Under the pieces are notes generated by a model. That model was not told where the DNA came from. It did no database searches and saw only the letters and a list, made by a program, of their open reading frames with translations. Source: an uncultured Acidobacteriota bacterium (GTDB lineage: Bacteria > Acidobacteriota > UBA6911). From it: a stretch of DNA of 64,000 bases. Below are positions 13,468 through 61,046 of this stretch, in pieces; positions within the stretch are counted from its first letter, which is position 1; every line of letters starts with the position of its first letter. The stretch lies in NCBI GenBank assembly GCA_963718845.1, contig CAVRAD010000009.1, positions 125,171 to 189,170 of the forward strand, read 5' to 3'. The position numbers and the translations under genes are program-made.

Positions 13468-15900
13468 ATGAGCGCCAAAAACAATGAGCTGTCTCCGCAA
13501 TGTCTGCGCTGGACTTGTGATCCTTCTGTTTTTTCATTCAAGACGACGGCAGAGATACCTCCGCTTCAAGGCATCGTGGAGCAGGAGCGCCCGATCCGGG
13601 CTATTCGCTTCGGCCTCGATATAACCTCTCCTGGTTTCAACATTTATGTGAGTGGCCTGACAGGGACCGGGAAAACGACAGTTATCAAGACCTTCCTCGA
13701 GGAAATCGCCGCGAAAATGCCTTGCCCGGATGACTGGTGTTACGTCTACAATTTCCGGGATCCCTATTGCCCCACGATACTGAATCTGCCGGCCGGGCGG
13801 GCTAAAGGTCTCAAGGCTGAGATGGATGAGCTTGTCCGCCACTTTAAGACCGCTATTCCCAAGGCTTTCGAGTCCAAAGAATACGAAGAGAGCGTAACCC
13901 AGCTTCATCGCGAGAATCAGGTACAGCAGCAGCTCCTTCTGGAAAAGCTTTCAGAAAAAGCGCGCGCGGAACAATTCGAGATCGAAATTTCGAAAGTAGG
14001 CGTTTCTCTGCTGCCTATGATCGACGGAAAACCGATGACCGCCGACCAGTATGAAGCGCTGGATCCGGAGGCCAAAAAGCAGATTGATGTCCGCAGGTCC
14101 GGACTTGACCCGGAGATTCAGTCGTTTCTCCGGCAGGTGCGCGATGCGAACAAAGACAGCCGCGATCGAGTCAACGAAATGCACCGGCGCGTCGGACTCT
14201 ATGTCGTAGGTGTCCGGATTGACGGGATCAAAGAGCAACACCCCGGATTTCCGCAGATAACGTCCTATCTGGACGATGTTCAAGAATACATACTCTCTCA
14301 CCTGGAGGATTTCACCGAAGATTCTGCGAAACAGGATTCATCCGGCTTGTCTCAGCTCCGATTGGATGCGCCGATCGATCCTTTTGCCAAGTACACTGTC
14401 AATATCGTGGTAGACAACACGGATCTCAAGGGAGCTCCGGTAATCATTGAAACCAATCCTACGTATTACAACTTGTTTGGACGCGTGGAACGGCGCGCGC
14501 AGTTCGGCACGCTTTCAGGCGATTTCACTCTTATCCGCGCCGGTTCTTACGCCAAAGCGAATGGTGGATTTCTCGTTGTCAATGCGCACGATGTTCTCCT
14601 GAACGCCGGCGTTTGGGAAACTCTGAAGCGCACGGTGAAAAACAAGGAGGTGTGGATCGAGGACATGACCGAGCAGCTGGGACTTGTCGCGGTTGCGGGC
14701 ATGCGGCCGAATCCTATCCCCGCCAACGTGAAGGTCATCATGATCGGCCACCAGATGATTTACCACGAGCTGTATAGCCTGGACGAAGATTTCCGCAAAA
14801 TTTTCAAAGTGAAAGCAGACTTCGACTCTGAAATGGCCAGGGATGCGCGCGCCTTCGTGGACTATGCCTCCTTCATCAGCTCGCGCTGCCACGACGAGGG
14901 CCTGCTGCACTTCGCCCCGTCAGGAGTGGCGGAAGTGATCGAATACGGCTCATGGCTGGTAGACAATCAGCAGAAGCTGTCGGCCCGCTTCAGCGATATC
15001 GCCGACATCGTTCGAGAAGCGAATTACTGGGCGCGCAACGCCGGTGAACCCATTATTTCCGCCGCGCATGTGAGGCGCGCGATTGAAGAAAAATACTACC
15101 GGTCCAGCCTGATCGAAGAACGGATCCGGGAGATGATCACCGATGGAACGATTCTCGTGGATGTAGCCGGAGAGGCGGTGGGACAAGTAAACGGATTGGC
15201 GGTAATGGACCTGGGAGATATCCGCTTTGGCAGGCCTTCCCGCATCACCGCGAAGACCTTTATGGGCAAGAGCGGTGTCATCGACATAGAACGCGAATCC
15301 AAGATGAGCGGGAAGATTTATGACAAGGGAGTGCTTATTTTGAGCGGCTATCTCGGTTCCAGATTCGCGCAGGAACGGCCCCTGTCTGTCGCCGCCAGCC
15401 TCTGTTTCGAACAATCGTACGACGGGATCGACGGAGACAGCGCTTCCTCGACGGAGCTCTATGCGCTGCTTTCAAGCCTGTCAAAAATTCCCATTAAACA
15501 GGGGATTGCCGTAACAGGATCCGTCAACCAGAACGGCCAAGTTCAGCCCATCGGAGGCGTAAACCAGAAGATCGAAGGGTTTTTCGACGTGTGCAAAGCG
15601 CAGGGTTTAACCGGCACGCAGGGCGTGATGATCCCCGGTCAGAACGCGAAAAACCTGATGCTGCGCCACGATGTCGTGGATGCCGTAGCGGCCGGTACCT
15701 TTCACATTTATGCCGTCAGCACCATCGATGAGGGAATAGAAGTTTTGACCGGTATTCCTGCGGGTGAAAAGACCGATCAAAATGCCTTCCCGGAAGGCAC
15801 TGTAAATTATCGTGTCGAACAGCGTTTGAAGGAATTTGCCGAAGCTCTCCGCACGTTCGGCCGGGAAGAGGAAGCAAGGATTAAAGGATTAAAGGATTAA
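13468..15900 (+). CDS. Lon-related ATP-dependent protease (AAA+ ATPase with Lon S16 protease domain, no Lon N-domain).
   Basis: Walker A GLTGTGKTT, a long helical insert, and a C-terminal protease domain GDSASSTELYALLSSLSKIPIKQGIAVTGSVNQNGQVQPIGGVNQKIEG (Ser-Lys dyad context). The ORF extends to 13351, but the MSAKNN start at 13468 fits better. The stop codon TAA lies inside the GGATTAAA repeat. Confidence 0.8.
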   Translation: MSAKNNELSPQCLRWTCDPSVFSFKTTAEIPPLQGIVEQERPIRAIRFGLDITSPGFNIYVSGLTGTGKTTVIKTFLEEIAAKMPCPDDWCYVYNFRDPYCPTILNLPAGRAKGLKAEMDELVRHFKTAIPKAFESKEYEESVTQLHRENQVQQQLLLEKLSEKARAEQFEIEISKVGVSLLPMIDGKPMTADQYEALDPEAKKQIDVRRSGLDPEIQSFLRQVRDANKDSRDRVNEMHRRVGLYVVGVRIDGIKEQHPGFPQITSYLDDVQEYILSHLEDFTEDSAKQDSSGLSQLRLDAPIDPFAKYTVNIVVDNTDLKGAPVIIETNPTYYNLFGRVERRAQFGTLSGDFTLIRAGSYAKANGGFLVVNAHDVLLNAGVWETLKRTVKNKEVWIEDMTEQLGLVAVAGMRPNPIPANVKVIMIGHQMIYHELYSLDEDFRKIFKVKADFDSEMARDARAFVDYASFISSRCHDEGLLHFAPSGVAEVIEYGSWLVDNQQKLSARFSDIADIVREANYWARNAGEPIISAAHVRRAIEEKYYRSSLIEERIREMITDGTILVDVAGEAVGQVNGLAVMDLGDIRFGRPSRITAKTFMGKSGVIDIERESKMSGKIYDKGVLILSGYLGSRFAQERPLSVAASLCFEQSYDGIDGDSASSTELYALLSSLSKIPIKQGIAVTGSVNQNGQVQPIGGVNQKIEGFFDVCKAQGLTGTQGVMIPGQNAKNLMLRHDVVDAVAAGTFHIYAVSTIDEGIEVLTGIPAGEKTDQNAFPEGTVNYRVEQRLKEFAEALRTFGREEEARIKGLKD

Positions 15901-16010
15901 AGGATTAAAGAGGATTAGAGGATCAAAGGATTAAAGGGGTAGAGGGATATTGGTGGCTGTAACCTGCATCCGGTCCCTTTAATCCTCTAATCCTTTAATC
16001 CTCTAATCCT
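15875..16010. repeat. GGATTAAA-type tandem octamer/heptamer array forming an inverted-arm hairpin.
   Basis: aggattaaaggattaaaggattaaag...ccctttaatcctctaatcctttaatcctctaatcc. Directly abuts and supplies the lon stop codon, and precedes moeA. Confidence 0.85.
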
Positions 16011-16036
16011 AAGCTACAGGGGAGCGGGAGATTTAT

Positions 16037-17257
16037 ATGATAAGCGTGGAAGAGGCCCTGGAGATTTTGCAGTCAAACCTGCCTGAGCGCAAAGTGGAGT
16101 GTGTCCCGTTTCAGGAATCGCTGGGACGTGTCATAGCTGAAAATCTCGCGGCCACAAGCGATATACCGCCCTTTTACCGGTCTTCTATGGACGGCTATGC
16201 CGTACTGGCTGCCGATGTGGAAAATCCGCCCGTGGAGCTCAGGATTGCCGGAGAAAGCCGGGCCGGAGGCGGAATCCCCGGGACTCTGAAATCCGGCGAA
16301 GCCATTGCCACCATGACGGGCGCTCCTGTCCCTGAAGGGGCAGATGCTGTCCAGGTGATTGAGCAATGCGAAATCATCGACGGCGGGCGGAAAGTCAGGA
16401 TCTTGAAGCCGGTCAAGGCTCATGAAAATATTGCTCCACGCGGATCCGAAGCGAAATCCGGAAACGTTGTCCTGGCAGCGGGGCATCGAGTAGGGCCCGC
16501 GGAAATCGCCGTTATGGCGACGTTCGGATACGGCGAGGTCAAAGTTTACGGAAAGCCCGCAGTAGCGATTTTTGCGACCGGCGATGAACTGGTCGAGTTC
16601 GATCAGATGCCTCAGCCTGATCAAATCCGAAATTCCAATGCCTATTGTTTGGCCAGCCAATTGCGGCTCATGGGCTTGGAACCCGACTATCTTGGAATCG
16701 TGAGAGACGACCGGGAAGAGCTGCGGCAAAAGATGCTGGCGGGCCTCGAGCGGGATGTCCTGATCATTACCGGCGGAGTCTCCATGGGGGAATATGATTT
16801 CGTTCGGGATGTTTTTCAGGATCTGGAACTTGAAATTCTGTTCAGCAAGGTCGCCATCAAACCCGGCAAACCCACGGTGTTTGCCCGCCGAGGAAACAAA
16901 CTTGTTTTCGGGTTGCCGGGAAATCCCATATCCGCTTTGATTACATTCGAGTGCTTTGTCCGTCCCGTGCTGGGCCGGCTTTGCGGCGCGGCAAATCCGG
17001 AATTGCCCAGGATGAAAGGCGAATTGCTGGCCGACATGAGACAGTCTCCGGGACGAACTGCCTTCCTGCCTGCATGGGTGACCTGGCAGGACGATGGATG
17101 GAAAGTGGATCCGCTGCGGTGGAAGAGCTCGGCGGACATCGTCGGATTCACAGGTGCGAATGCAACGTTCATCTTTCCCAAGAACCGTGATCTTTTAAGC
17201 CGGGGAGAGATTGTGGAAATAATGCTGCTGCCTGACTTCTTTGTCCGGCAGCGCTAA
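16037..17257 (+). CDS. moeA: Molybdopterin molybdenumtransferase.
   Basis: A 406-aa MoeA/gephyrin E-domain protein (GDEL...ITGGVSMGEYD...GLPGNP). Intact. Confidence 0.9.
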   Translation: MISVEEALEILQSNLPERKVECVPFQESLGRVIAENLAATSDIPPFYRSSMDGYAVLAADVENPPVELRIAGESRAGGGIPGTLKSGEAIATMTGAPVPEGADAVQVIEQCEIIDGGRKVRILKPVKAHENIAPRGSEAKSGNVVLAAGHRVGPAEIAVMATFGYGEVKVYGKPAVAIFATGDELVEFDQMPQPDQIRNSNAYCLASQLRLMGLEPDYLGIVRDDREELRQKMLAGLERDVLIITGGVSMGEYDFVRDVFQDLELEILFSKVAIKPGKPTVFARRGNKLVFGLPGNPISALITFECFVRPVLGRLCGAANPELPRMKGELLADMRQSPGRTAFLPAWVTWQDDGWKVDPLRWKSSADIVGFTGANATFIFPKNRDLLSRGEIVEIMLLPDFFVRQR

Positions 17258-17258: not shown

Positions 17259-17356
17259 CGGAATTACGAATTACGAATGACGAATTACGATTGGAATCAT
17301 CCTCCATCAATAATTCGTAATTCGTCATTCGTCATTCGAATTCGTAATTCGTAATC
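17259..17356. repeat. TTACGAA-type heptamer hairpin.
   Basis: ggaattacgaattacgaatgacgaattacga...taattcgtaattcgtcattcgtcattcgaattcgtaattcgtaat, immediately after the moeA stop. Confidence 0.85.
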
Positions 17357-18290: not shown

Positions 18291-18307
18291 CCGGGCCGCT
18301 GAGCGGC

Positions 18308-18382
18308 CGGTTACAAGTTAACAGGTTTACAGGTTGCAGGATAAAACCTGGAATTTGTAACCTGGAACTTGAAACTTGGAAC
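18308..18382. repeat. ACAGGTT-type heptamer hairpin.
   Basis: ggttacaagttaacaggtttacaggttgcagg...aacctggaatttgtaacctggaacttgaaacttggaacc. Confidence 0.8.
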
Positions 18383-20537: not shown

Positions 20538-20738
20538 ATGGCTGAATCGTATCGAAGATGCTCGCATTGCAAAGGAACGGGGAAATGCCGCGCCTGTCAC
20601 GGGGAGGGCCGGTTGGCGCTGCAAAAGGGAAAAGTGTGCACTTTCTGCCAGCCGTACGGCAGCGGGAAATGCCAGAACTGCAAAGGCCTTGGTGGTTACG
20701 ATGCAGCCGGCAATCCGGCACCCAAACCTGAGAATTAG
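20538..20738 (+). CDS. Small DnaJ-type zinc-finger protein (four CxxC motifs).
   Basis: MAESYRRCSHCKGTGKCRACHGEGRL...CTFCQPYGSGKCQNCKGLGG is a CxxCxGxG-type repeat. It starts 3 nt after the mutM stop. Confidence 0.55.
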   Translation: MAESYRRCSHCKGTGKCRACHGEGRLALQKGKVCTFCQPYGSGKCQNCKGLGGYDAAGNPAPKPEN

Positions 20739-20739
20739 G

Positions 20740-20855
20740 AATGACGAATTACGAATTACGAATGACGATTTGAAACATACATTGTGGATAGAGGTTAATC
20801 CTTCGCTGCAATGTATTTTTTCATTCGTAATTCGTAATTCGTAATTCGTAATTTT
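20740..20855. repeat. TTACGAA-type heptamer hairpin with a ~50-nt loop.
   Basis: ggaatgacgaattacgaattacgaatgacga...loop...tcattcgtaattcgtaattcgtaattcgtaat. Confidence 0.85.
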
Positions 20856-20858
20856 GCT

Positions 20859-21623
20859 ATGTTTCTAGCTATTGACATTGGAAACACAAACGTCACCCTC
20901 GGTATCTATGAGGGAGAAGTTCTAGGTCCGCGCTGGCGTCTTGCCACGGGACACGACAGGACGCAGGACGAGTATGGCACTTTGATGCTGGGCCTTTTTC
21001 GCCGTGCGAAAATTTCCGCCCGGGATGTGCGCGCGATCGCGATGGCTTCTGTGGTACCGCCTTTGACCGGAACATTTGTAGAAGTCTGCCGTCAATTTCT
21101 CCGCCTGGAACCGCTGGTAGTCGATGGGACATGCCGTACCGGCGTCCGCATCCGATGCGATGATCCGAGCCAGGTGGGTGCCGACAGGATTGTGGATGTG
21201 GCGGCGGGGTACAAGCTTTACGGAGGGCCCGCCTGCATTATCGATTTTGGCACGGCGACTACCTTCGATGCGGTTTCCCCGGAGGGAGACTATCTCGGTG
21301 GCGCCATTGCTCCCGGGATCGGGATTGCATCTCAAGCGCTGTTTGAACACACCGCAAAATTGCCCAAAGTAGACCTTCGATGGCCGCCCTCTGCGATAGG
21401 AAGAAATACCATGCATTCATTGCAGTCGGGGCTCATGTTCGGTTATGTGGGACTCGTCGAGGGTGTTGTATCCCGGTTCCAGAAAGAACTGGGACCCGGC
21501 ACCCGGGTGATTGCAACCGGCGGTCTGGCGGAGGTTATAGCAAAAGAAACAAAAGTTATTTCCATTCTCGCACCATGGCTGACGCTTGACGGACTGCGCA
21601 TCATCCACGACCTTAATTCCTGA
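20859..21623 (+). CDS. coaX: Type III pantothenate kinase.
   Basis: MFLAIDIGNTNVTLGIY...IIDFGTATTFDAV...GRNT. Intact. Confidence 0.9.
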   Translation: MFLAIDIGNTNVTLGIYEGEVLGPRWRLATGHDRTQDEYGTLMLGLFRRAKISARDVRAIAMASVVPPLTGTFVEVCRQFLRLEPLVVDGTCRTGVRIRCDDPSQVGADRIVDVAAGYKLYGGPACIIDFGTATTFDAVSPEGDYLGGAIAPGIGIASQALFEHTAKLPKVDLRWPPSAIGRNTMHSLQSGLMFGYVGLVEGVVSRFQKELGPGTRVIATGGLAEVIAKETKVISILAPWLTLDGLRIIHDLNS

Positions 21624-21657
21624 TTCCAGATTCCGGATTCCAGATTCTGGATTCCGA
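21615..21657. repeat. GGAATCY-type heptamer hairpin.
   Basis: tgattccagattccggattccagattctggattccga, immediately after the coaX stop. Confidence 0.85.
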
Positions 21658-21705: not shown

Positions 21706-22326
21706 ATGCAGACTCTCGTTTGTTCTTCCAGCTGGCTGGCTGCCGCTCTGTCGGCGGACGCGCTGATTGTATCTCTGTCTGCTTCTGCCGAGCAATTCAC
21801 CGGTTATTCTGCCCAGGAACTTGTCGGCAGGCCGATTACCCAGATCCTGGCCGACCATTCGGCTTTTGAAATGCCGCAAATCCTGAATGCCGCAAAAGAG
21901 TGGGGCAATTGGGAAGGCGAACTCATACATCGCACCCGGAGCGGGCGATCCCTGGAAGCGCGCGGCGCAGTGACGTCGCTGGCAGGCAAGGGAAACTTGC
22001 CTGCTGGATTTCTACTGGTATCAAACCTGAATAGAACTCCGTCGATGAATGCGTGTGATAGTGCGGTTGTGGCCGATATTTCGGCCAGCCTGAGAGGGTT
22101 TGTCCATGACCTGAACAATCCTCTAGCTGTGATCATGGGATTTGCTCAACTGCTGGAATTGAACTCCGACTGCAACGGTAAGGTTCAAGCCGATATCAAA
22201 AAAATTTCTGAAGAGCTGAAGAATGTAGTCCGCATTGTCGAGAGATTGCACGGGTACGCAATCTCTCTGGATGATAAGCCTAAGAGTTTGATTCCAGATT
22301 CAGGAATTCTGACTCCTGAATTCTGA
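21706..22326 (+). CDS. PAS-domain plus HisKA (DHp) protein with no HATPase domain; its C-terminus is encoded by heptamer repeats.
   Basis: PAS-like region, then the H-box FVHDLNNPLAVIMGFAQLL. The ORF ends inside the gattccagattcaggaattctgactcctgaattctga repeat (aa ...SLIPDSGILTPEF). Confidence 0.6.
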   Translation: MQTLVCSSSWLAAALSADALIVSLSASAEQFTGYSAQELVGRPITQILADHSAFEMPQILNAAKEWGNWEGELIHRTRSGRSLEARGAVTSLAGKGNLPAGFLLVSNLNRTPSMNACDSAVVADISASLRGFVHDLNNPLAVIMGFAQLLELNSDCNGKVQADIKKISEELKNVVRIVERLHGYAISLDDKPKSLIPDSGILTPEF

Positions 22327-22343
22327 CTCCTGAATTCTGTCTT

Positions 22344-24270
22344 TTAGTAATAGGACTGCCGCGCAACCTCGTCTAAAGATTTTGAATTGATGCGAATCTT
22401 CCCCGCCTTTTCCAGCTCTTCGTAAATTCTGCGGATGTAATCCTGGAAATAAATATCCTGGCTCGATTTGAGCAGCTTCGCTTTCAATTCCGCCTTTCCC
22501 TGCTGGAATGCTGTTTCATCAAACGGGGAACGGGATTTAACCTGAAGCACAGCGGCATTCTCCGACAGCGGCACAGGAGAACTCACGCCTCCCTGCGGCA
22601 AATCGAAGGCGACCCTGTTGAAGGGGGTATTCGCGCCGATCTCGGCGTCCGGCGTCCCGGAGATATTAAAGGGCTGGCTAGCTTTGGTGCTCAAGCCCAT
22701 CTCTTTTGCGGCCTTTTCCAGACTGCCTTGCGTGCGTGCAGTGTCTGATAGCTTTTTCGCGGCCGCCTGCATCAGCTCTGTCGCTTTGGCGTCGATGTAA
22801 TCTTTCTCGATTTGGCTCTGGAATTGAGCGAAATCCCCGGGCTTGGGCATCTGCACCTCGATTAGTTTGGGGATGGCAAGACCCAGCGGGTGTTCCACTG
22901 GTTTTCCGATGGCATTGATTTCCTTAAGGGCGAAGACTTCGTCTCTCAGGGCTTGAGAGCCGAAGAGATCGAAAGAACTGTCATCCTTGGTGAAGAGGGG
23001 CGTTTCTTTGACTTCCGCTGCTATCCCCAGATTGTTGGCAGCCAGGTTGAGATTCTTGTTCTTCTGCAAAAGCTGCACAGCCGCTGCGGCCTTTTCTTTT
23101 GCCAGATCCTGTGCCTTTCTGCTTTGAACGGCCATCATCAGTTGAGGGCGGCTCGCTTCGAAAACAGGCGTTTCATGCCGCATGGCCTGAATGATGTGGT
23201 ACCCGTACTGCGTACGCACTAGTCCGGAGGTTTCGCCGACCTTCAACGCGAAAGCGGCATCCTCAAACTCCTTGACCATCTGGCCGCGCTGGAAAGGCCC
23301 GAGATATCCTCCCTGTGCCGCGCTGCCCGTATCCTGGGAATATTGTTTGGCGAGAGCTGCAAAATTCCCGCCGCTTTTCAGCTTTTTAAGGACCTCCTCG
23401 GCTTTCGCTTTAGCCTCGGCGTCTTTGGATTCATCGCCGACCTGGAGCAATATATGGGCCGCTTCCACCGTTTCCGCGTGCGGCTTCTTATTCCATTCCT
23501 CAAGAATTTCCTGATCGGTCACTTTGATGCCGGGAAGCATTTGTGCGACCGGGATCAGCAGATATTGCGCCTTGCGTTTCTCTTTTATCTGGTAAGAGGC
23601 TTTGTGATCTTCGAAATATGCGCGCAGATCCGCTTCGACCGGTTTCACGCGCGCTTTAAAATCCTGCTTTTTAAGGATGGCGTAATACACTTCGGCCTGC
23701 TCATTGGAGCGGGAAAATTCCTGCCGCAGTTCCTTGTCGCTCACGTCAATGGAATCCGTGATGACCGCCCGAAACTTGCTGATAAGCTGGGATTGGCGCA
23801 GATCTTTTTCGAAATTTTCGACGGAGAGATCGTTTGCCGCGAGAAGATCCTTGTACCGATCGATCCCGATAAACTTGCCCTGATCCTGGAAATACGGATA
23901 CGCTTCAATGGTGCGGCTGACCTCATTCGGCGTGACGTCTGATGCCGAGTCGTTGGGCGGCCATCTCGACCAGCTTGGAGGTTATCATTTCATTCAGCAC
24001 CTGCTGAGGGACTCCCATAGCCTTGAGGGTTTCGGGATCGGTTTTGTTTTTGCCCCCGTTACTGTAACTCTTTACGGTTCTGTGATATTCGAGGGCAAAA
24101 TCCGCGATCGTGATGGATTGGCCATCGACCGTAGCTGCGGAATTATCCGTTGTGACATTCTGCATGTCGAAGCCGGGCACAAAAAAGAGAAGCATGCCCA
24201 AGGCCAAGCTGAAGATTACAAACCATAGAATTACTTTTAGCCGCTTTTTACGGCGCATTAAATCCAGCAT
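22344..24270 (-). CDS. ppiD: Periplasmic chaperone / parvulin-type peptidyl-prolyl isomerase (PpiD-like), membrane-anchored. Frameshift near 23925.
   Basis: N-terminal TM segment (ORF 23923..24270), a SurA-N-like region, and a parvulin domain AAHILLQV...[23 protein letters not shown]...GYHIIQ. Reading continuity is restored in the +1 frame ([23 protein letters not shown]...). Confidence 0.75.
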
Positions 24271-24319: not shown

Positions 24320-24590
24320 ACGATTCCAAATTACGGATTCCAGATTCCTGATTCCTGATTGAAGATTGCATGCAGCGATTAGGGAGAATCCTGAAATATT
24401 AGCAATTTACCAAGAACGACACCCAGATCCCGATGTAGTTTGCTGAATCTGGAATCTGGAATCTGGATGGAAGACCTCATGCGACGATCAGAGAGAATCC
24501 TGAAATATGAGCAATTTACCAAGAGCGACACCCGGATCCGGATGTAGCTCTTGTCCGGAATCTCGAATCCGGAATCCGGAATTATTTAAT
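24320..24590. repeat. Composite repeat: GGAATCY heptamer arms flanking two tandem copies of a conserved ~62-nt element.
   Basis: Copy 1 at ~24375-24440 (gcgattagggagaatcctgaaatattagcaatttaccaagaacgacacccagatcccgatgtag). Copy 2 at ~24487-24552 (gacgatcagagagaatcctgaaatatgagcaatttaccaagagcgacacccggatccggatgtagc). About 90% identical, each flanked by gattcc/ggaatc arrays. Confidence 0.8.
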
Positions 24591-35765: not shown

Positions 35766-35778
35766 AGGTATTCCTCAT

Positions 35779-40417: not shown

Positions 40418-42450
<2,033 letters not shown>

Positions 42451-42610: not shown

Positions 42611-43282
42611 ATGGGAAATCAGAACCAACAACCGCGGCCGGAAACCGATAGGATCGCGTTCGACCTAGAACGTTTTTCAGGCCTGAGCTCCGAAATGGTC
42701 GCGCTGCTGGAGACGCTTGCCCAGGATATCAATCGATCTGCGCAGGAGCTCCAGGATATCCGGGCCGCAGTGGATGCCGGGAAGAAGGAGCTTGCCGCGC
42801 TGCGCGAAAGCGAGAGGGAAGTGTCGGTCTTGAAGCTGCAACTCGAGGATCTCCGCCTGCAGAAAGAAAGCCTCGAAAACCTCATCGCGGATCAGCGGAA
42901 TGCCTGGGAGGAAGAAAAAACAAAACAGGACTTGGAAGAAAGGGAACGTGAGGAGAATCTCAAAACCCTGCGACAGAGGGAAGAGGAAGAGTATCGGCTG
43001 ATGCGGGAAAACGAGCAGATGCAAGCCCGGCAGAAATTTGAAGAAGAGCTGGAGACGATGCGACAGAAAAGCGCGGAAACCCGGACTGCAGGGGAAACGG
43101 ATATTCTCGCAAGGGAATCGGCGCTCAAAAAAAAGGAGCAGGAGTTGAGCCGGCTCATGCAGGAACTGGAAAAGTTTTTGTCCGGGCTTGCCGGCCGGAA
43201 AGGGACTGCGGCAGCGGATCCGGGTGTATCGGGTCCGGATTCGAGATTCGAGATTCGAGATGCGAGATTGCAGATCTATTGA
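42611..43282 (+). CDS. Coiled-coil protein of unknown function; the C-terminus runs into TCGAGAT repeats.
   Basis: 223 aa rich in E/K/R/Q heptad-like repeats. The tail ...GPDSRFEIRDARLQIY is encoded by the gattcgagattcgagat array. Confidence 0.4.
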   Translation: MGNQNQQPRPETDRIAFDLERFSGLSSEMVALLETLAQDINRSAQELQDIRAAVDAGKKELAALRESEREVSVLKLQLEDLRLQKESLENLIADQRNAWEEEKTKQDLEEREREENLKTLRQREEEEYRLMRENEQMQARQKFEEELETMRQKSAETRTAGETDILARESALKKKEQELSRLMQELEKFLSGLAGRKGTAAADPGVSGPDSRFEIRDARLQIY

Positions 43283-43400
43283 TCCTGCACGCATTTGCGT
43301 TATCATAAACCGGCACATCCTATAGGCCTGGGCTTCAGCCCCAGCCTATATTTTAATCTCGAATCTCGAATATCGAATCTCGAATCGCTGCTTATGCCTT
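43205..43400. repeat. TCGAGAT-type heptamer hairpin with a ~110-nt loop containing an internal near-palindrome (cctataggcctgggcttcagccccagcctata).
   Basis: gattcgagattcgagattcgagatgcgagattgcag...loop...aatctcgaatctcgaatatcgaatctcgaatc. Confidence 0.8.
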
Positions 43401-44278: not shown

Positions 44279-45690
44279 TCACCGAAAGATGCGGTGGATG
44301 TCGATGATCTTCGAGAGATCGTTGAATACGACAAAGCCCATCAGGAGAATGAGGAAAACAAAACCGACCTGAACGATCCTTTCCTTGAGATTAAGGCTGA
44401 GATCCCTGCCAATCAGCCCTTCGATCAGGAGAAGCAAAATTACCCCTCCATCCAGAATCGGGATTGGGAGCAAGTTAAACACGCCGAGCTGAAGGCTTAC
44501 CAGCCCCAAAAATCCAAAGAAAACGCGAGCGCTGCCTGTGCGGGCGGCGCTCCCGGATATCCGGGCGATCTCTATCGGGCCGGATAGCGTCCGCACGGAT
44601 GCGGATCCCTTGATAATCCTGCCGATTATTTTGAACGTCAAAGAAGACAGCTCGTAGTTTCGCCGGATAGACTGCGTAATGGCGCCGATGATACCGAACT
44701 TCTGCAGGTCGGACGGATAGTCGTGCTACGAATCCGATAATGACGCGCCCCTTCTCTTCGATCGGCGTGATATTGAGATGCAGGATACTGCTGTCCTTGT
44801 CCGACGGATGATTCCCAGATCTGATCCTTTGAAGGTTCCGCATTTGGCCTGCGGATTTTGAAGCGCAGCGGAATGCCTTTGCTTTCCGAGATGATGTTCA
44901 ATATCCCGTTATAGCCTGTCGCTGTGCCATGCTTTCCTGTGACGGAGAGTATCTCGTCTCCTGCTTTCAATCCGGCTTTCTGTGCCGGGGAACCTTCGTC
45001 CACCGCAAACACGATCGCCCGGGGCAGCGAGTATCTGAAACCCAGCAGGCCAGGGTCAATCGGATCTTTTGATGCAGGCGCTTCAAAATGGAGCTGCAAA
45101 TTCTGATTATTGCGCAGGACCTCGACATTCAAAGCGTCCCTGGGAGCTGTCCCCAGCGCAACCTCCAGATCTTCCCACGTCATGATTTGATTGCCGTGTA
45201 CGCTGACGATCTGGTCCCCGGTTTGCAGTCCCGCTCGTTTTGCGATGGAATCTGCCGCAACCGGTCCTACGATTGCCGCCTCTTTCGGATACCTGGCAAC
45301 ATAGACCCCCTCGATATAAGAAAAAGTCAAAATGAACACTGCCAGGAGGATGTTCATGCAGGGGCCGGCAACTGCGACCAGAAACCGGTGCCATTTCGGA
45401 TGAGACAGGAATTCGTCCGGAGACCCTTGGCGTTCATCGTCGTACGTCTCGCCGGCCATTTTCACATAGCCGCCTATTGGGAACGGGCTTAGACGATACT
45501 CCGTTCCGCCGCGAGTGAATCCCAGGAGTTTGGGGCCAAATCCCAGGGAAAATACGAGGACCCGGATTTTCAGGAGCTTCGCCATGGCAAAGTGGCCAAA
45601 CTCATGAATCGTGATTGTAATGCCCAGCACCACTACAAAAGCCAGAATTGTAGTTATCAATGCAAAATCCCTCCGCCCTTCTCCCATATG
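44279..45690 (-). CDS. rseP: Site-2 protease RseP (zinc metalloprotease with PDZ domains). Several frameshifts in 44640-44900. The annotated ORF extends upstream through a heptamer array.
   Basis: HEFGHF (HExxH) soon after MGEGRRDFALITTILAFVVVLG, PDZ regions, and a C-terminal LLPIPILDGG (LDG motif) in ORF 44279..44641. The first ~70 codons of ORF 44638..45897 translate the GGAATCT array (WNLESGIWN...) and are probably not coding. Confidence 0.8.
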
Positions 45691-45696
45691 ATGCCC

Positions 45697-46010
45697 TAAA
45701 TATGGGAAAGGCTCAACCACCGATACAATCGATTCGGATTCCAGATTCAGATTCGAGATTCCAGGTTCCAGATTCGAGATTCCGAAGGTTCCAGATTCCA
45801 GATTCCAGGTTCCAGATTCCAGATTCCAGTTCCAGATTCCAGATTCGAGATTCCAGATTCCAGCAGTTCGAGATTGGCAGATTTCGAATCTGTTCATTGG
45901 GTTGTTATATCCGCAATCGAAATTTGATTTAGCTCCCCGCTACCATAACTCCACTGCAGAACTTGAGGCGCATCAATATCCGAAATTACGTTTTTCTCTG
46001 GAATCCGGAA
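45697..46010. repeat. Long GGAATCY heptamer array (~25 units) plus a ~90-nt conserved element plus a short inverted arm.
   Basis: About 180 bp of gattccagattccaggttccagattcgagattcc..., then gattggcagatttcgaatctgttcattgggttgttatatccgcaatcgaaatttgatttagctccccgctaccataactcc (45885-45975), then ggaatccggaatctggaatccggaatc. Confidence 0.85.
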
Positions 46011-46024
46011 TCTGGAATCCGGAA

Positions 46025-47222
46025 TCAAATGGAGATCGCCTGCCTCGGGGACTGGCAATAGACTCTGGCTTCCTCTCTGGCCCAGGCGTCGGCGGTCAGA
46101 ACGGTTTCCAGATCGGTTGCCTCTTTGGGCGAGTGCGCGTCCAGCACCGACTCGATGATTTGCGGGATCTCCTGATAGGCAATCCCGCCATTTAGAAACG
46201 CCTCTACGGCCACTTCGTTGGCTGCATTGAGCACGGCCGGCGCGGTGCCCCCGGTCCGCAGCGCTCGATATGCCAGGCTCAGGCAGGGGAACTTTTCCTG
46301 GTCAGGCTTGAAGAACTCAAGCTTGGGCAATTGATAAATATCCAGAGAGGGAAGAGGCGAATTCCACCGTTCGGGGTACGTCAGGGCATATTGGATGGCG
46401 ATCCGCATGTCCGTCAATCCCAGCTGCGCCAGGACAGAACCGTCGACAAACTCGACCATGGAGTGGACAACGCTCTGAGGATGCACGACAACGTGGATTT
46501 CTGTCGGCTGCCACTTCAAACAGCCGGGACGCTTCGATCACCTCGAGCCCCTTATTCATCAACGTGGCGGAATCGATCGTTATTTTTCTGCCCATACTCC
46601 ATGTCGGATGGTTGAGTGCCTGGTCGAGCGTTACCGACGACATTTTCTCCCTGGGAGTTTCCCGGAAAGGCCCTCCGGATGCCGTCAGGATCAGGCGCGC
46701 CACCTCTTTGTGCCGCCCGCCCCTCAAACACTGGTGGATCGCGTTGTGCTCGCTGTCCACCGGTAAGATCTCGACATTCCTCTCTCGCGATTTGCGCATC
46801 ATCAGCTCGCCCGCGACCACCATTGTTTCCTTGTTTGCGAGCGCGATGCTCTTTCCCCGTTCCAGCGCACGGTAGGTAGGCACAAGACCTGCTGCGCCGG
46901 AGATCGCGGAGAGAACCATTGAGGACTCGGGATGGCAGGAAACCTCGATGTGTCCTTCCATCCCGTAGACGAAACGCGTGCGCGCCATGGGATAGCCGCG
47001 CTGCCGCAGTAGACTCTGCAGTTCGGCAGAGACGTGTTCGTCTCCGCTGGAGGCGATTTCCGGGCGCACTTCTTCGATCTGCTGCGCCAGAAGCGTAACG
47101 TTTTTGCCTCCGGTCAGACCCACGACTCGGAATTCTTTTGGAAAGCTGGAAGTAACTCTGAGGGTGTTTGTGCCGATGGATCCGGTGGAACCGAGAATGG
47201 AGATTGTTTTCATCAATGCCAA
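46025..47222 (-). CDS. dxr: 1-deoxy-D-xylulose 5-phosphate reductoisomerase. Frameshift near 46520.
   Basis: ISILGSTGSIGTNTL...LANKE... (ORF 46317..47222). The C-terminal half ...SMVEFVDGSV...NAANEVAV... is in ORF 46025..46519. Confidence 0.9.
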
Positions 47223-50235: not shown

Positions 50236-50335
50236 GTCCCTTTGATTCCGGATTCCGGATTCCAGAATCCAGATTACAGACTGTAGAATAGGGATATTTA
50301 TCTGGAATCTGGAATTTGGAATCCGGAATCGATTG
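50236..50335. repeat. GGAATCY-type heptamer hairpin with a ~30-nt loop.
   Basis: gattccggattccggattccagaatccagattacag...atctggaatctggaatttggaatccggaatc, upstream of pyrE. Confidence 0.85.
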
Positions 50336-51202: not shown

Positions 51203-51682
51203 ATGCGGATACTGGGTATTGACCCCGGAAGTGGAACCACCGGTTACGGTATCATCGAAACCGATGGCTCTCAGCACACGGCTGTCCTGTACGGCGCTAT
51301 TAAAACGAATCCACGACAACCCTTCCACGAACGCCTTCTCAAGATCCACACGGATCTGTGCGCTATCGTTGCGCGCGAGAAGGTGGACATCATGGCGATC
51401 GAGGAGGTGTTTCACGCCACCAACGTGCAGTCGGCTCTCCGCCTGGGCCATGCCAGGGGGATTGCTCTGCTGGTTGCCGCGCAGCAGAGAATCGGTGTCT
51501 TCGAATACTCACCCCTGGAAATCAAAAGCGCCGTTGTCGGATATGGCCGGGCGGAAAAAACGCAGGTACAAATCATGGTCCGTCTTCTCCTCAACCTTTC
51601 ACAAATCCCCACGCCGGATGACGCCGCCGACGCGCTAGCCGTAGCCATATGCCACGCCAACAAAATGACGAATTACGAATGA
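51203..51682 (+). CDS. ruvC: Crossover junction endodeoxyribonuclease RuvC.
   Basis: MRILGIDPGSGTTGYGII...IEEVF...DAADALAVAICHA. Confidence 0.9.
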   Translation: MRILGIDPGSGTTGYGIIETDGSQHTAVLYGAIKTNPRQPFHERLLKIHTDLCAIVAREKVDIMAIEEVFHATNVQSALRLGHARGIALLVAAQQRIGVFEYSPLEIKSAVVGYGRAEKTQVQIMVRLLLNLSQIPTPDDAADALAVAICHANKMTNYE

Positions 51683-51832
51683 CGAATTAACAAATACTTG
51701 TTTGTTCGGGCAAAGAGCCGGAACAAATGCGAGAGGATACATCGAGACTGCCTATGATTAGTCAGCAGCCCATACCTGGCAGTATGTTTTCATTCGTAAT
51801 TCGCAATTCGTCATTCGTAATTAGGTTACGAC
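51663..51832. repeat. TTACGAA-type heptamer hairpin with a ~100-nt loop.
   Basis: cgaattacgaatgacgaatta...loop...ttcattcgtaattcgcaattcgtcattcgtaatt. Overlaps the last codons of ruvC (…KMTNYE). Confidence 0.8.
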
Positions 51833-54139: not shown

Positions 54140-54402
54140 AGGATTAAAGGATTAAAGGATTAAGGGATTAAGGGATTAAGGGATAAAGGGATTAAAGGAT
54201 TAAAGGATTAAGGGATTAAAGGATTAAGGGTGTAAAGGGTTAAAGAGGTAAAGAGATGGGGAGCCAGAAGCAAGAATCCAGAAGCTGGACTCCCGAATCT
54301 GGAATCTCGAATCTCGAATCTGGAATCTGGAATCTGGAATCTCGAATCTGGAATCTGGAATCCGGAATCCGGAATCCGGAATCTCGAATCGGAATCATGC
54401 TA
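54140..54402. repeat. Tandem GGATTAAA array (~14 units) immediately followed by a GGAATCT array (~17 units).
   Basis: ggattaaaggattaaaggattaagggattaagg... then ctggaatctcgaatctcgaatctggaatctgg.... Both arrays are in a single orientation here, not an obvious hairpin. Confidence 0.85.
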
Positions 54403-54992
54403 GGCGGCCAACGCGGACCTGAGCGGGACGGAGCAGCTGGCCGTTCATGCAGTATCCGGATTGGACTTCTTCCACGACTACGCCATCACTGTCGGCGTCT
54501 TTGACTTTGACCGTCCCGACGGCTTGCTCCAGGTTGGGATCGAATGGCTGGTTCAAGGCGGGAATGGCTTCCACGCCCATTGCCTGGAGCTTGGAGCGAA
54601 AGAGGTTCGCGGTCATCTGCACGCCTTCGAGCAGATGCTCTACGGTTCCTGCCTGCGAGGCGGAATCCAGCGCGCGCTGCAGGTTGTCCATGACATCTAA
54701 GAAACGGAAGAATAATTTTCTGCTTCTCCAGCGCAAGCTTGCGTTCGAAATCACTTTCAAGCCTGGCTTTGGTGCGACTTATCTCTGCGTCGATCTGCTG
54801 CTTCTTTTCCTGAAACTTGCGTTCGGTCTCCGCCATTCGTCCCATCAGTTCTTCTACGTAGGAAGGGTATCGGGGTTTTTCTTCTGCGAGAGTTTTTTTG
54901 TCGATGGCCTCCAGATTCACAAACTGCCTTTTGTCGGTGACATTAAAATTCACGATGTCCGTTTCTTCGTCTTGTATTTCCTGATTCGCCAT
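54395..54992 (-). CDS. grpE: Nucleotide exchange factor GrpE. Frameshift near 54740.
   Basis: ORF 54486..54992 has the N-terminal coiled coil (...ERKFQEKKQQIDAEISRTKARLESDFERKLALEKQKIILPF). ORF 54395..54760 has LDVMDNLQRAL...GYCMNGQLLRPAQVRV. Confidence 0.85.
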
Positions 54993-55924: not shown

Positions 55925-56025
55925 GCCTAATTGATGATTGACGATTTACGATTGAAGGACCCCGATGCTTAGTTTCCATGAGTAATTCGTCATTCGTAAT
56001 TCGTAATTTAGCTATGCTGCTTCCC
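55925..56025. repeat. TTACGAA-type heptamer hairpin (partial arms) with loop.
   Basis: …gatttacgattgaagg...gagtaattcgtcattcgtaattcgtaattt. Confidence 0.6.
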
Positions 56026-58596
56026 AAATACTAATTCTCCGCTCTGCGTGTCGAGGCCCAAATGAATTGAATCTCCGGGGCTGACGTCTCCATTCAGGAG
56101 CAGCATGGCCAGTCGGTCCTGAATCTTTTTTTGGATGAGGCGCTTGAGCGGTCTGGCACCGTACACCGGGTCATACCCTTCGCGGGCGATTTGTTCAACG
56201 GCCGCGGGCTGAGACGGTCAGCGAGAGTTCTTTCTGTGCCAAAATCTTTTCCAGCTGCTTGAGCTGCAATTCAACGATGCCTTTGATCAGATCCTGCGTC
56301 AGGCGGTGGAACACGATCACGTCGTCGATCCGGTTGAGGAACTCCGGCCGGAACGTGCTGCGCAGAGCCTCCATGAGCTGGGGCATTGCTTTGTCCATGT
56401 CTCCGGAGGATGTCGCTGATTGCCTGGCTGCCGATATTGGATGTCATGATGATCACGGTGTTTTTAAAATCAACCGTGCGGCCTTTCCCGTCTGTGAGCC
56501 GTCCGTCGTCCAGGATCTGGAGCATGATGTTGAAGACATCCGGATGGGCTTTTTCGATCTCGTCAAACAACAGAACGGCATAGGGCCGGCGACGGATAGC
56601 CTCCGTCAGATACCCGCCCTCTTCGTATCCGACATAGCCCGGGGGCGCGCCGATCAGGCGCGCCACCGAATGTTTCTCCATGTACTCCGACATGTCGATA
56701 CGCACCATGGCGTGTTCATCATCGAAAAGGAACTCGGCCAGGGCTTTTGCAAGCTCGGTTTTCCCGACACCGGTGGGGCCGAGAAATATGAACGATCCCA
56801 TAGGCCGCCGGGCATCCTGCAAGCCTGCCCTTGCGCGTCTGATCGCATTCGATACGGCAGCCAGCGCATCATCCTGTCCCAGTACGCGCTGGCGCAGGCG
56901 ATCTTCCATGTGAACCAGTTTCTGAATCTCTCCTTCCAGCATCTTGCGTGACCGGGATCCCGGTCCACTTGGCCACGACTTCGGCAATATCTTCCTCGTC
57001 CACTTCTTCCTTCAGGAATTTTTTGCTCGATTGCAGCTGTGTCAGCCTGTCGTTCTGCTGGGAGAGTTCTTTCTCCAGCTGCACGAGGGTGCCGTAGCGC
57101 AGTTCCGCGGCCTTGCCCAGGTCCCCGAGGCGCTCGGCATTCTGTTCCTGAGCTTTGACGTTTTCGATCTTTTCTTTGACGGCTCGGATCGAGCCGATAA
57201 TTTCGCGCTCCTGCTGCCAGTGCAGCTTCATCCCGCGCTTTTTTCCTGCAACTCGGCCAACTCGGCATTCAGAGCGTCCAGCCTGTCCAGCGACGCCTTG
57301 TCGGTTTCCTTGGAGAGTGCCTGGCGCTCTATTTCCAGCTGCGTGACCCTCCGCTCGACCTCGTCGATTTCAACCGGCATGCTGTCGATTTCGATGCGCA
57401 GTCGCGACGCCGCTTCATCCATCAGATCGACGGCTTTGTCCGGCAGAAAACGGTCGGCGATGTAGCGGTGGGACAGAACTGCCGCCGCGACAATGGCGGA
57501 GTCGGTGATGCGCACTCCGTGATGCACTTCGTATTTTTCCTTCAGTCCGCGCAGGATGGCGATGGTGTCTTCCACGGAAGGCTCGCCGACAAATACGGGC
57601 TGGAACCGGCGCTCCAGCGCTGCGTCTTTTTCGATGTGCTTCTTGTATTCGTTGAGCGTGGTAGCGCCGATGCAGCGCAATTCCCCGCGGGCAAGGGCCG
57701 GCTTGAGCATATTGGAGGCATCGATCGCTCCCTCGGCGGCTCCTGCGCCGACCAGCGTGTGAAGCTCGTCAATGAAGAGGACAATCTGCTCCGGCCGACT
57801 CCTCGATTTCCCGGAGAACCGCTTTCAGCCGGTCTTCGAATTCGCCGCGGTATTTGGCTCCGGCCAGCATCCCGCCAAGATCCAGCGCGACCATCTGCTT
57901 CTTTTTAAGAGTCTCGGGAACGTCCCCGGCGACGATGCGTTGCGCCAGTCCTTCCACGATAGCTGTTTTGCCTACACCCGGTTCTCCGATCAATACGGGA
58001 TTGTTCTTGGTTCTGCGCGACAGGACTTGAATAACCCGCCGGATTTCGTCGTCCCGTCCAATCACAGGGTCCAGTTTGCCGCGACGGGCCAGGTCCGTGA
58101 GATCACGCGCATATCGCTTTAGTGCCTGGTATTTCTCTTCAGCATTCGGGTCGGTCACCCGCTGGCCGCCCCTGATCGAAGCAAGGGCTTTGAGGATGTT
58201 GTCTTTGCTTGCCCCCTGCCTGCGCAGGAGTTCGCCCGCCAAGCCGTCCGCAGCGGCGAGAGCCAGCAGAAGGTGCTCGGTCGAGACATATTCATCTTTA
58301 AACTGGTCGGCCTCTTTCTCAGCCTGCGAGAAAACCGCATCCAGCCTTTGTGAAAAAGAGAGCTGTCTCCCATCGACTTTGGGTTGCGAGGAGAAATGCC
58401 GGTCGAGTTCGGAGCGCATCGAATCGATCGACACTCCAAGCTTTTTCAGCAGGGGAGCAACAATGCCGTCCTCCTGCCAGGCCAGCGCTTCGAGCAAATG
58501 CTCGGGCTCAAGCTGCGCGCTTTTCAGGGTTTCCGCCCTCCGCTGGGCTACCTGTAACGCTTCCTGAGCCTTCAGGGTGAATTTATCTAACCGCAT
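56011..58596 (-). CDS. clpB: Chaperone ClpB (Clp/Hsp100 AAA+ disaggregase). At least five frameshifts.
   Basis: N-domain and NBD1 in ORF 57769..58596 ([15 protein letters not shown]). The M-domain coiled coil is in ORFs 57228..57710 and 56869..57231. NBD2 is in ORF 56271..56987 ([15 protein letters not shown]...). The C-terminal domain is in ORF 56195..56398 and a further frame, ending ...[10 protein letters not shown] at 56011. Confidence 0.9.
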
Positions 58597-58654: not shown

Positions 58655-58870
58655 TATTGTCAAACTTAACAATTCCAGATTCCAGATTCCGGATAAAAAC
58701 GCAATTTCTGATGTTGACGATCCTCAAGCTCTGCGGCGGAGTAATGGTAACGGGGAGCTAAATCAAATGTAGATTGCGGATATAACGACCCAATGAACAG
58801 CTTCGAAATTTGCCAATCTGGAATCTCGAATCCGGAATCCGGAATCTCGAATCAAAGGCATCCGGAATTA
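58655..58870. repeat. GGAATCY heptamer arms flanking a second copy (reverse orientation) of the ~90-nt element also found at 45885-45975.
   Basis: 58730-58815 reverse-complemented reads gattggcaaatttcgaagctgttcattgggtcgttatatccgcaatctacatttgatttagctccccgttaccattactcc, ~90% identical to 45885-45975. Flanked by ccagattccagattccgg and ctggaatctcgaatccggaatccggaatctcgaatc. Confidence 0.85.
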
Positions 58871-60901: not shown

Positions 60902-61003
60902 GGAAAGCCCTCCTTGGATGAAACCACACGATCGATGGGGACAGGATACAAGAATCCCGATGCGCGACACAAGCAGGAAGGCAAAATACGTACCTGGTTA
61001 TAG

Positions 61004-61046
61004 TGTCCCCCAAACTAAGAATCTGGAATCTGAATCCGGAATCACA
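61004..61046. repeat. GGAATCY-type heptamer run (single arm) preceded by the 20-nt motif CCTGGTTATAGTGTCCC (60987-61003).
   Basis: acctggttatagtgtcccccaaactaagaatctggaatctgaatccggaatc. The same 17-20-nt motif occurs at 9641-9660. Confidence 0.7.

Follow-up and report, generated by a model that had tools for sequence, protein, structure and literature searches.

A 64-kb stretch of the chromosome of an uncultured Acidobacteriota bacterium (contig CAVRAD010000009.1, positions 125,171–189,170; hereafter the window; genome GC content 0.55) carries arrays of short tandem units, mostly heptamers, at 20 loci, or about one locus per 3 kb. Roughly 14 of these loci form a hairpin, in which a loop of 4–130 nt separates a 5′ array from its inverted 3′ counterpart. 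An initial annotation made from the sequence implied a distinct class of element. They are not a new class, as the same architecture has been described before in Xanthomonas (PMC4692102), in Geobacter metallireducens (PMC2700814) and in the STRR sequences (short, tandemly repeated and repetitive) of cyanobacteria (PMC2670836). The reading to which we lean, with slightly better than even confidence, is that they are heptamer repeats with palindromic arms, of one kind with STRR, the Xanthomonas GGGAATC repeats and the Geobacter paired repeats, resembling repetitive extragenic palindromic (REP) sequences and maintained at the DNA level.

The arrays were located by Tandem Repeats Finder (TRF) and by a separate periodicity (lag) scan. 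Arrays were found everywhere the initial annotation had reported them, with corrected starts for the TCGAGAT array (43233, not 43205) and for the GGAATCY array of the 45.7-kb locus (45737). TRF returned 67 rows in the window, the intergenic ones almost all of period 7, 8, 14 or 21. In the lag scan, lag 7 gave 22 regions (998 nt) and lag 8 three regions (209 nt) with at least 80% self-match; no such stretch occurred at lags 5, 6, 9, 10 or 11. At a laxer threshold there were 31 period-7 arrays against 0–3 in three shuffles, and four period-8 arrays against 0–1. The density, 20 loci in 64 kb, was rightly called unusually high. The units present are YGGAATC, GAATTAC, TCGAATC, GGATTAAA, ACAGGTT and an AGTC-type heptamer, none containing a G3 tract, and single arrays hold 3 to 18 copies.

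The stems are 20–45 bp long, A+U-rich and repetitive. For the eight loci of at most 150 nt, fold z scores against dinucleotide shuffles range from -3.9 to -9.9 and none of the shuffles folded equally well; longer loci, compared with mononucleotide shuffles, gave about -4 to -10. The inverted-arm hairpins proposed earlier are therefore borne out, with strong folds, at about 14 of the 20 loci, and not at the remainder, where arrays are solo, degenerate, weak or unmatched. None of the window hairpins matched an Rfam covariance model at gathering score, and the sole Rfam match in 45700–46100 was a 13-bit chance hit.

Nine syntenic loci from independent assemblies were compared with the window, L111–L118 around moeA and L129 around the OPT transporter gene. 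MoeA identity to the window falls from 98% to 75% across L111–L118; flank identity is 93–96% in L111–L114 and about 73–84% in L115 and L116. The loci of the window are as follows.

9669–9694: weak solo array located between divergent genes, (GATTCCW)x3.7, found by TRF and the lag scan; not a hairpin, fold z -0.3.
15876–16010: octamer hairpin, (GGATTAAA)x7.5, loop, (TTTAATCC)x4.4, in the lonC/moeA spacer; dinucleotide-shuffle z -5.3 (at 15866); orthologous hairpins in L111–L115.
17261–17355: hairpin, (GAATTAC/GAATGAC)x4.3, loop, (GTAATTC)x6.6, in the moeA/moaC spacer; dinucleotide-shuffle z -7.2 (at 17255); L111, L115 and L116 differ in both arms.
18311–18382: hairpin of ACAGGTT-type units between a Zn-ribbon gene and a radical-SAM gene; dinucleotide-shuffle z -6.0 (at 18305); orthologues among the relatives compared.
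20732–20856: hairpin, (GAATTAC/GAATGAC)x4-5, 45-nt loop, (GTAATTC)x4.4, ending 2 nt 5′ of the coaX start; dinucleotide-shuffle z -9.9 (at 20728); GACGATT/AATCGTC units at this site in relatives.
21612–21656: solo 5′ arm (ATTCCRG)x5.7 over the coaX stop codon; not a hairpin, z -1.8.
22290–22341: mixed arrays, GATTCCA then the 14-mer GAATTCTGACTCCT x2.6, in a convergent-gene spacer (TRF, fold).
24322–24585: composite locus in the divergent spacer between surA and an mtxA-like gene (TRF, fold), in the order (GATTCCW)n, copy 1 of a ~70-nt core (24368–24440), (TGGAATC)x3.3, core copy 2 (24471–24556), (GGAATCC)x4; arm and loop types reassort among L111–L114.
32288–32375: hairpin of GTTACAR/TGTAACC units, 3′ of a rodA/ftsW-family gene (Pfam); dinucleotide-shuffle z -3.9 (at 32280).
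34866–34947: hairpin, (GATTCCR)x6, 4-nt loop, (YGGAATC)x4.3, in the convergent rng/mazG spacer; dinucleotide-shuffle z -8.2 (at 34862).
35776–35890: hairpin, (GAATTAC)x3.4, 53-nt structured loop, (GTMATTC)x4.6, 2 nt past the stop codon of a DegT-family gene; dinucleotide-shuffle z -8.1 (at 35772).
40248–40429: AGTC-type heptamers forming a weak hairpin around a 130-nt loop, in the convergent spacer between an accD-like gene and ligA; z -2.0.
43233–43389: hairpin, (GATTCGA)x4.6, 80-nt loop, (TCGAATC)x4.6; mononucleotide-shuffle z -9.7 (at 43228).
45737–46028: hairpin with unequal arms, (GATTCCA)x18 and (GGAATCY)x3.9, around a 125-nt core (45866–45995), in the dxr/rseP spacer; mononucleotide-shuffle z -6.4 (at 45735).
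50241–50331: hairpin, (GATTCCR)x5.3, loop, (YGGAATC)x4.4, in the divergent spacer between a phosphoribosyltransferase gene and yebC; dinucleotide-shuffle z -8.8 (at 50236).
51663–51822: hairpin, (GAATGAC/GAATTAC)x3.4, 100-nt loop, (GTAATTC)x4.4, in the convergent spacer between ruvC and a Memo-like gene; mononucleotide-shuffle z -4.8 (at 51658).
54140–54396: two unlike adjoining arrays with unmatched arms, (AGGATTAA)x13 then (GAATCYG)x15, from the grpE stop codon (TRF, fold); probably the outer arms of two former hairpins.
55928–56010: degenerate hairpin, GACGATT-type/GTAATTC; z -1.8.
58669–58854: hairpin, (CAGATTC)x3.3, 125-nt core (58697–58814, inverted relative to the copy at 45866), (GGAATCY)x5.6, in the OPT/clpB spacer.
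61019–61043: short solo array (GAATCYG)x3.7; not a hairpin, z -2.4.

Every spacer compared in the close relatives holds a hairpin, which differs in copy number, unit, period and loop. Differences in unit and period affect both arms together at a fixed site, even where the flanks are 93–96% identical. The spacers compared are listed below.

moeA/moaC spacer, window and L112–L114: (GAATTAC)n / (GTAATTC)n.
moeA/moaC spacer, L111: 5′ arm mixed, 3′ arm of octamers.
moeA/moaC spacer, L115: (AATTCGA)n / (TCGAATC)n.
moeA/moaC spacer, L116: (GATTCGA)n / (GAATCTS)n, greatly expanded.
moeA/moaC spacer, L117: single decayed arm.
moeA/moaC spacer, L118: no array.
surA divergent spacer, window and L114: GATTCCA arms.
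surA divergent spacer, L111 and L113: arms of the octamer GATTCCGA.
surA divergent spacer, L112: GATTCGA arms.
coaX 3′ end, L111–L114: 5′ arm, 125-nt core and 3′ arm.
coaX 3′ end, window: 5′ arm alone.
coaX 3′ end, L115: (CAATTCT)n / (AGAATTG)n.
coaX 3′ end, L116: GATTCGA arms enclosing another loop, of 300 nt.
OPT 3′ end, window: GATTCCR arms with the core.
OPT 3′ end, L129: short-looped hairpin of (GATTCGA)n, without the core.

The loops of the surA spacer are of type A in the window, L113 and L114 and of type B in L111 and L112, a distribution that differs from that of the arm types. Array lengths at shared sites also vary between the window and L111–L114. The sites are stable, while unit, period, copy number and loop turn over fast. 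Furthermore, L111–L116 hold 7–12 arrays per 21 kb, whereas L117 holds two and L118 one. It follows that the hairpins are a trait of whole lineages and that these gene junctions do not demand them.

Many genes in the window are split (clpB, dxr, rseP, surA and ligA among them), suggesting long-read indels, and one could ask whether the arrays are themselves an assembly artefact of low-complexity sequence. This is exceedingly improbable. Nine independent assemblies, from different samples and assemblers, carry hairpins at the same loci; they comprise long-read as well as SPAdes- or MEGAHIT-style short-read contigs (L115, L116 and L129), and the arrays are period-specific. Hairpins also occur on other contigs of the sister metagenome-assembled genome (MAG) CAVXIH01, and the repeats are found in other genomes, which refutes a confinement to this contig.

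Across all loci examined, 130 array hairpins were aligned arm to arm, and 3450 of the 3908 stem positions (88%) are Watson-Crick pairs, the mismatches including 140 G·T and 129 A·C. Arms fit their own partner better than they fit same-family arms of other loci in 25 of 31 comparisons (Wilcoxon p=3e-4), so that the two arms of a locus evolve together. Where hairpins of the window and L111–L116 lie between co-oriented genes, mismatches were tallied by hand in the direction of transcription; there were 21 G·U against 23 A·C, so that no excess of sense-strand G·U was seen in this low-powered count of 44 informative mismatches. In this mismatch test, limited as its power is, there is no sign that pairing is maintained only on the transcript. 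The arms at 45737–46028 are very unequal (18 against 4 units), and higher-order periods of 14 and 21 nt exist (TRF), both of which are easier to explain by slippage of units or unequal exchange than by selection for a given length of stem.

Maintenance at the DNA level could proceed as follows. Units may be gained and lost by replication slippage, as the unit-step differences in length and the 14- and 21-nt periods suggest. The arms would be kept Watson-Crick complementary by arm-to-arm copying (quasi-palindrome template switching), and alternatively or additionally by conversion between the numerous copies with arm sequence in common; the co-variation of the arms is observed, and either process might account for it. 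Such copying or conversion could also move loop cargo such as the 125-nt core. The arrays would expand into whatever spacer DNA is dispensable, which would explain why they are seen to abut or overlap stop codons yet keep about 50 nt from starts. At the loci examined they occur genome-wide in some lineages and are absent in related ones, so that they do not serve as gene-specific regulators there. When transcribed, the hairpins would give stem-loops of about -30 to -90 kcal/mol just past the stop codon, most plausibly acting, like REP sequences, as generic 3′ barriers, insulators or translation dampers.

The hairpin loci make up 2291 of the 7833 intergenic nt (29%) of the window. They occupy 13 tandem spacers (most of those of at least 80 nt), 4 of 6 convergent and 3 of 6 divergent ones. 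By gene calls that are approximate, several genes being split by frameshifts, array edges lie at a median of -2 nt from the neighbouring stop codon, and 11 of the 21 run into the end of the open reading frame (ORF), in agreement with the earlier observation that arrays start within a few nucleotides of stop codons; the median distance to the adjacent start codon is 51 nt. It was also correctly noted that a U-tract is lacking, as inspection of the 3′ flanks of the hairpins revealed no T-runs.

This placement would also fit elements acting on RNA, either terminators without a U-tract or stabilisers of 3′ ends and intercistronic mRNA, selected for a stem-loop after the stop codon. In support of this, the folds are very stable, the same spacers keep their hairpins down to ~75–80% nucleotide identity, and canonical terminators with a stem and T-run show no enrichment in 35–55 kb (25 against 22.5 +/- 5.1 in shuffles). 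STRR hairpins have likewise been proposed to stabilise transcripts or to couple translation (PMC2670836). However, the asymmetry between stops and starts is equally expected if arrays cannot invade promoters and ribosome-binding sites. Half of the divergent spacers are occupied, and hairpins also separate co-oriented, possibly co-transcribed neighbours (lonC/moeA and moeA/moaC). Arm lengths are wildly unequal, solo arms persist (21612 and 61019), sense-strand G·U is not in excess, and L117 and L118 are hairpin-free at the same gene junctions. We therefore consider selection at the RNA level unlikely, and the terminator role implied by the initial annotation is not supported.

Dispersed copies share a common descent. 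The stretch 58672–58853 is 85% identical to 45835–46018 over 184 nt, the 125-nt core included, and 50252–50335 and 34868–34951 show an identical order of variant units; paralogous copies are only 78–85% identical. The core is present at no fewer than four independent loci, always between GATTCCR and YGGAATC arms (45866–45995, 58697–58814, 7640–7766 of L082 and ~15610–15740 of L111–L114), and in both orientations relative to flanking transcription. The copy in L111–L114 lies at the coaX 3′ end, where the window has no core. As a structured RNA the core was rejected, since it shows no covariation, a consensus fold of only -9.4 kcal/mol and no Rfam match. A scan of Joint Genome Institute (JGI) metagenomes with the core pattern CCGCAATCN5TTGATTTWGCTC gave five chance matches and no real copies. 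Among these chance matches were two unrelated metagenome contigs in which (AATCCGC)x3-4 lies in a conserved, protein-coding-looking stretch (L126, 870–900; L127, ~1460–1490). In the composite surA locus, the ~70-nt loop sequence is tandemly duplicated, with 89% column identity, arm units included, and each loop copy is followed by a (YGGAATC)n array; here a unit of loop plus 3′ arm appears to have been duplicated within one hairpin.

The six repeat families initially listed are not independent but intergrade. Most units can be written as NNNRATT, or GGTT, in the 5′ arm, where the forms CCAGATT, CCGGATT, CGAGATT, CCGAGATT, ACGAATT, GACGATT, AAAGGATT, ACAGGTT and CTCAATT are found, and the families mix inside single arrays, exemplified by the moeA/moaC 5′ arm of L111. 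The arms also have a polarity. Of 48 pairs of the GGAATCY family, 43 have (GATTCCR)n as the 5′ and (YGGAATC)n as the 3′ arm, and in the GAATTAC family (GAATTAC)n always comes first; over all families RATT stands in the 5′ arm of 82 hairpins against 15, in samples that are not independent. Both polarities are thermodynamically identical as duplex. The asymmetry may reflect common descent or a specific partner. A cause in purine/pyrimidine or stop-codon content is inconsistent between families, and an origin of the arms from a quasi-palindromic unit (GGAATCC against GGATTCC) fits one family only and predicts no polarity.

In a scan for (GGAATCY)x4 with one genome per species, more than 110 stretches were among the matches listed. 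The genomes rich in the pattern among these matches belong to Acidobacteriota (Pyrinomonadaceae, Blastocatellia, Chloracidobacterium and unclassified MAGs) and Isosphaeraceae, with sporadic matches in Patescibacteria, Armatimonadota, Verrucomicrobiota, Bacteroidota and a few isolates. Several other heptamer families coexist at many of these loci. The Isosphaeraceae MAG CAWHUG01 (GC content 0.67) has the GGAATCY unit in the same polarity as the window, with proteins 41–64% identical. Viral contigs gave only five matches to the four-unit pattern, and thus no sign of a phage origin.

Polarity, the shared unit and the core could together point to non-autonomous mobile elements, similar to miniature inverted-repeat transposable elements (MITE) or to REP doublets forming hairpins (REPIN), with heptamer terminal inverted repeats, an enzyme acting in trans, loops as cargo and horizontal spread. 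The same unit and polarity are found in genomes of 0.67 and 0.55 GC, and dispersed copies have a common core or unit order, the core being present or absent at an orthologous site. In Geobacter, insertion sequence (IS) elements lie at a fixed distance from such pairs (PMC2700814). Inverted arms and dispersed, core-sharing copies exist. No target-site duplication was seen by eye at four core-bearing copies, and the 78–85% identity of paralogues gives no sign of recent transposition. Neither a transposase nor a gene resembling the REP-associated tyrosine transposase (RAYT) was found among ~50 window ORFs scanned with Pfam, the sites stay put over long divergence, and the pattern is rare in viral contigs. 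Mobility of this kind is in our view rather improbable. We would equally give only a small chance to a related speculation, in which the repeats form a horizontally spreading non-autonomous class whose trans-acting partner, an enzyme or binding protein, reads RATT-phased 7–8-nt units in fixed orientation, the loops being exchangeable. If true, it would explain the polarity, the presence of GGAATCY in both Acidobacteriota (55% GC) and Isosphaeraceae (67% GC), and the all-or-none distribution among genomes.

Heptameric intergenic repeats have been known since 1990, when STRR were described; the units of STRR1–3 are CCCCAGT, TTGGTCA and CAACAGT, and in the RNase P RNA gene an STRR is located in a helix. 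REP sequences, bacterial interspersed mosaic elements (BIME) and REPIN are imperfect intergenic palindromes in hundreds of copies, operon-internal or at 3′ ends and often a few nucleotides from stop codons. REPs are lineage-specific and have generic effects on mRNA stability, termination and translation; each is a single palindrome of 20–40 nt with a conserved GTAG/CGTC head and an associated RAYT (Y1 transposase). The repeats of the window are like REPs in being intergenic, stop-adjacent and lineage-specific palindromes, but their arms are tandem heptamers of 3–18 units, without a single 20–40-nt palindrome carrying a GTAG/CGTC head, and the difference from E. coli-type REP/BIME pointed out earlier is upheld. 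They share with intrinsic terminators a stem-loop 3′ of the stop codon, but have no short G+C-rich stem with a U-tract, and they occupy divergent spacers too.

Heptameric repeats are over-represented in many bacterial genomes, for which polymerase slippage was suggested (Mrazek et al. 2007, as summarised in PMC4692102). In Xanthomonas there are ~185 GGGAATC-type loci per genome, with 70–75 inverted pairs and 2–26 copies; they are strongly intergenic and transcribed, and no function was found (Rehm et al. 2015, PMC4692102). They lie mainly between co-oriented ORFs, on average 28 nt from the upstream and 160 nt from the next ORF, and sites are shared between Xcc and Xac with different lengths (PMC4692102). 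The window repeats resemble them as tandem 7-nt intergenic units in inverted pairs, near the upstream ORF and with length variation at stable sites, and YGGAATC is one base apart from GGGAATC. They differ in lacking the G3 tract, and hence G-quadruplex potential, and in the coexistence of several unit families, octamers included. Furthermore, the Xanthomonas pairs are called 'convergent', which we take to mean the reverse polarity, (GGGAATC)n followed by (GATTCCC)n, and divergent spacers are not visibly shunned in the window (3/6, a small sample).

Cyanobacterial STRR are 7-bp tandem intergenic units that can fold into hairpins, as in the hupS–hupL spacer and upstream of hoxW, with proposed roles in transcript stability, translational coupling or termination (PMC2670836). 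The title of Vioque 1997 reports STRR in the RNase P RNA gene. The window repeats share the 7-bp chromosomal intergenic units able to form hairpins, but not the unit sequences, and inverted pairs dominate, whereas few pairs are inverted in Nostoc (PMC4692102). G. metallireducens has four classes of paired tandem 7–9-nt repeats on opposite strands, of 3–5 units, with variable pair distance and dozens of intergenic copies (Aklujkar et al. 2009, PMC2700814). Its multicopy sequences set it apart from G. sulfurreducens (PMC2700814). Several classes, opposite-strand pairs and lineage specificity are common to both systems, but the Geobacter arrays are shorter, have other units and are associated with IS elements, an association not seen in the window. 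The TAACTGA repeats of Beggiatoaceae, cyanobacteria and Bacteroidetes have a patchy cross-phylum distribution suggesting horizontal transfer (MacGregor 2015, PMC4679880). These too are intergenic heptamer tandems, patchy across phyla and without an established mechanism, but they have a single unit, are nearly all direct (one inverted set) and lie just upstream of start codons. The window repeats thus show the features of heptameric simple sequence repeats, i.e. 7-nt tandem units, many intergenic loci, copy-number variation and frequent inverted pairs, with units other than STRR1–3 or GGGAATC, and represent the same kind of element in another sequence family. In the literature searched we found no account of such repeats for Acidobacteriota or Planctomycetota.

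For the Geobacter pairs and the Nostoc heptamers a role as binding sites was proposed earlier; the former are annotated as 'global regulator binding sites, mostly in pairs' (PMC2700814), and the latter alter the expression of recF and recO (bioRxiv 10.1101/2022.06.06.494920). Arrays of sites for a protein that binds DNA or RNA sequence-specifically, for instance a nucleoid protein or global regulator, would also be consistent with the constant 7–8-nt phasing and with the RATT/AATY half-unit common to the families. They are hard to reconcile with a unit, and even a period, that differs at one spacer among strains with 93–96% flank identity, with copy numbers from 3 to 18, and with neighbours that are unrelated housekeeping genes, and we think this function very unlikely. 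Two specific candidates were rejected. Methylation of GANTC (CcrM/HinfI-type) would concern only the GGAATCY and TCGAATC families, as GANTC is absent from the GAATTAC, GGATTAAA and ACAGGTT units. A CsrA sponge, with GGA every 7–8 nt, is disfavoured because GGA is base-paired within the hairpins and because the genes flanking 54140–54245 are on the minus strand, so that the transcript would be the complement, without GGA.

Although we lean towards maintenance at the DNA level, several points speak against it. Slippage, template switching and conversion are processes that we infer, and the persistence of hairpins to ~75–80% nucleotide identity in L115, L116 and L129 could equally reflect structural selection. 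A purely mutational model does not predict the fixed polarity (43:5) or the recurrence of one unit in a planctomycete-type genome of 67% GC, both of which are suggestive of horizontal spread or of a partner that recognises the sequence. With its 44 informative mismatches the G·U/A·C test is low-powered, and orthologous loci are non-independent samples.

Any model of heptameric intergenic repeats has to accommodate paired arm change at a fixed site, a fixed polarity and one unit across phyla differing in GC content. The present lineage is favourable for their study, as the repeats are dense, inverted pairs dominate and relatives are graded from 96% to 75% identity, with the L117 and L118 genomes as a natural hairpin-poor control.

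The window MoeA (16037–17257) shares 98% identity with a protein encoded by MFD02979.bin.2.93 (CAVXIH01), a MAG of an uncultured Acidobacteriota bacterium. The genes neighbouring the arrays are ordinary chromosomal ones, i.e. lonC, moeA, moaC, fpg, coaX, surA, mreB, rodA, rng, mazG, ligA, dxr, rseP, ruvC, yebC, grpE, clpB and the OPT transporter gene. Automatic gene calls are liable to distortion by the arrays, which extend the ORFs of lonC, mazG and rseP. At 15876–15900 the lonC stop codon falls within a GGATTAA unit, in the first units of the octamer array. At 34800–34947 the mazG ORF passes through the entire 34866–34947 hairpin, because GGAATCY units are stop-free in every frame, and the rseP ORF is artificially lengthened upstream across 18 units (45737–45897). 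Several genes are split into 2–4 adjacent ORFs or truncated: surA (22344–24270), ligA (40459–42441), rseP (44279–45897), dxr (46025–47222), grpE (54395–54760) and clpB (56271–58596). The orthologues of surA, clpB and grpE are intact in relatives, and the other splits are suggested by partial Pfam domain coverage. This looks like long-read assembly indel errors, or pseudogenes, and repeat-unit counts in the window may accordingly be off and should be treated with care. The arrays, with their large share of intergenic DNA, are likely hot spots of assembly and gene-calling error in such MAGs.

The segment beside glmS differs among close relatives (window 9694–10853, L111 4434–4802, L112 3009–4815). 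The window has a NIPA/EamA-like transporter gene (9929–10831) and no hairpin at the glmS 3′ end; in L112 a gene for an alginate-export-type porin is present, and a GAATTAC hairpin comes after it.

Other palindromes are also present in the window. An 86-nt near-perfect palindrome (3021–3106; 86% self-complementary by BLAST), without heptamer structure, lies inside a hydrogenase/heterodisulfide-reductase-like gene cluster. The region 62832–63107 is a 276-nt imperfect palindrome of small GC-rich hairpins with two Acido-Lenti-1 RNA motifs of Rfam (62911–62955 on the plus and 62983–63027 on the minus strand; 43 and 50 bits), and represents another type of palindromic repeat in this genome, unrelated to the heptamer arrays. 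The heptamer hairpin at 43233–43389 holds in its loop a small GC-rich stem (CTGGGCTTCAGCCCCAG) with a T-rich tail after it (43328–43353); this stem is similar to the GC hairpins of the 62832–63107 palindrome.

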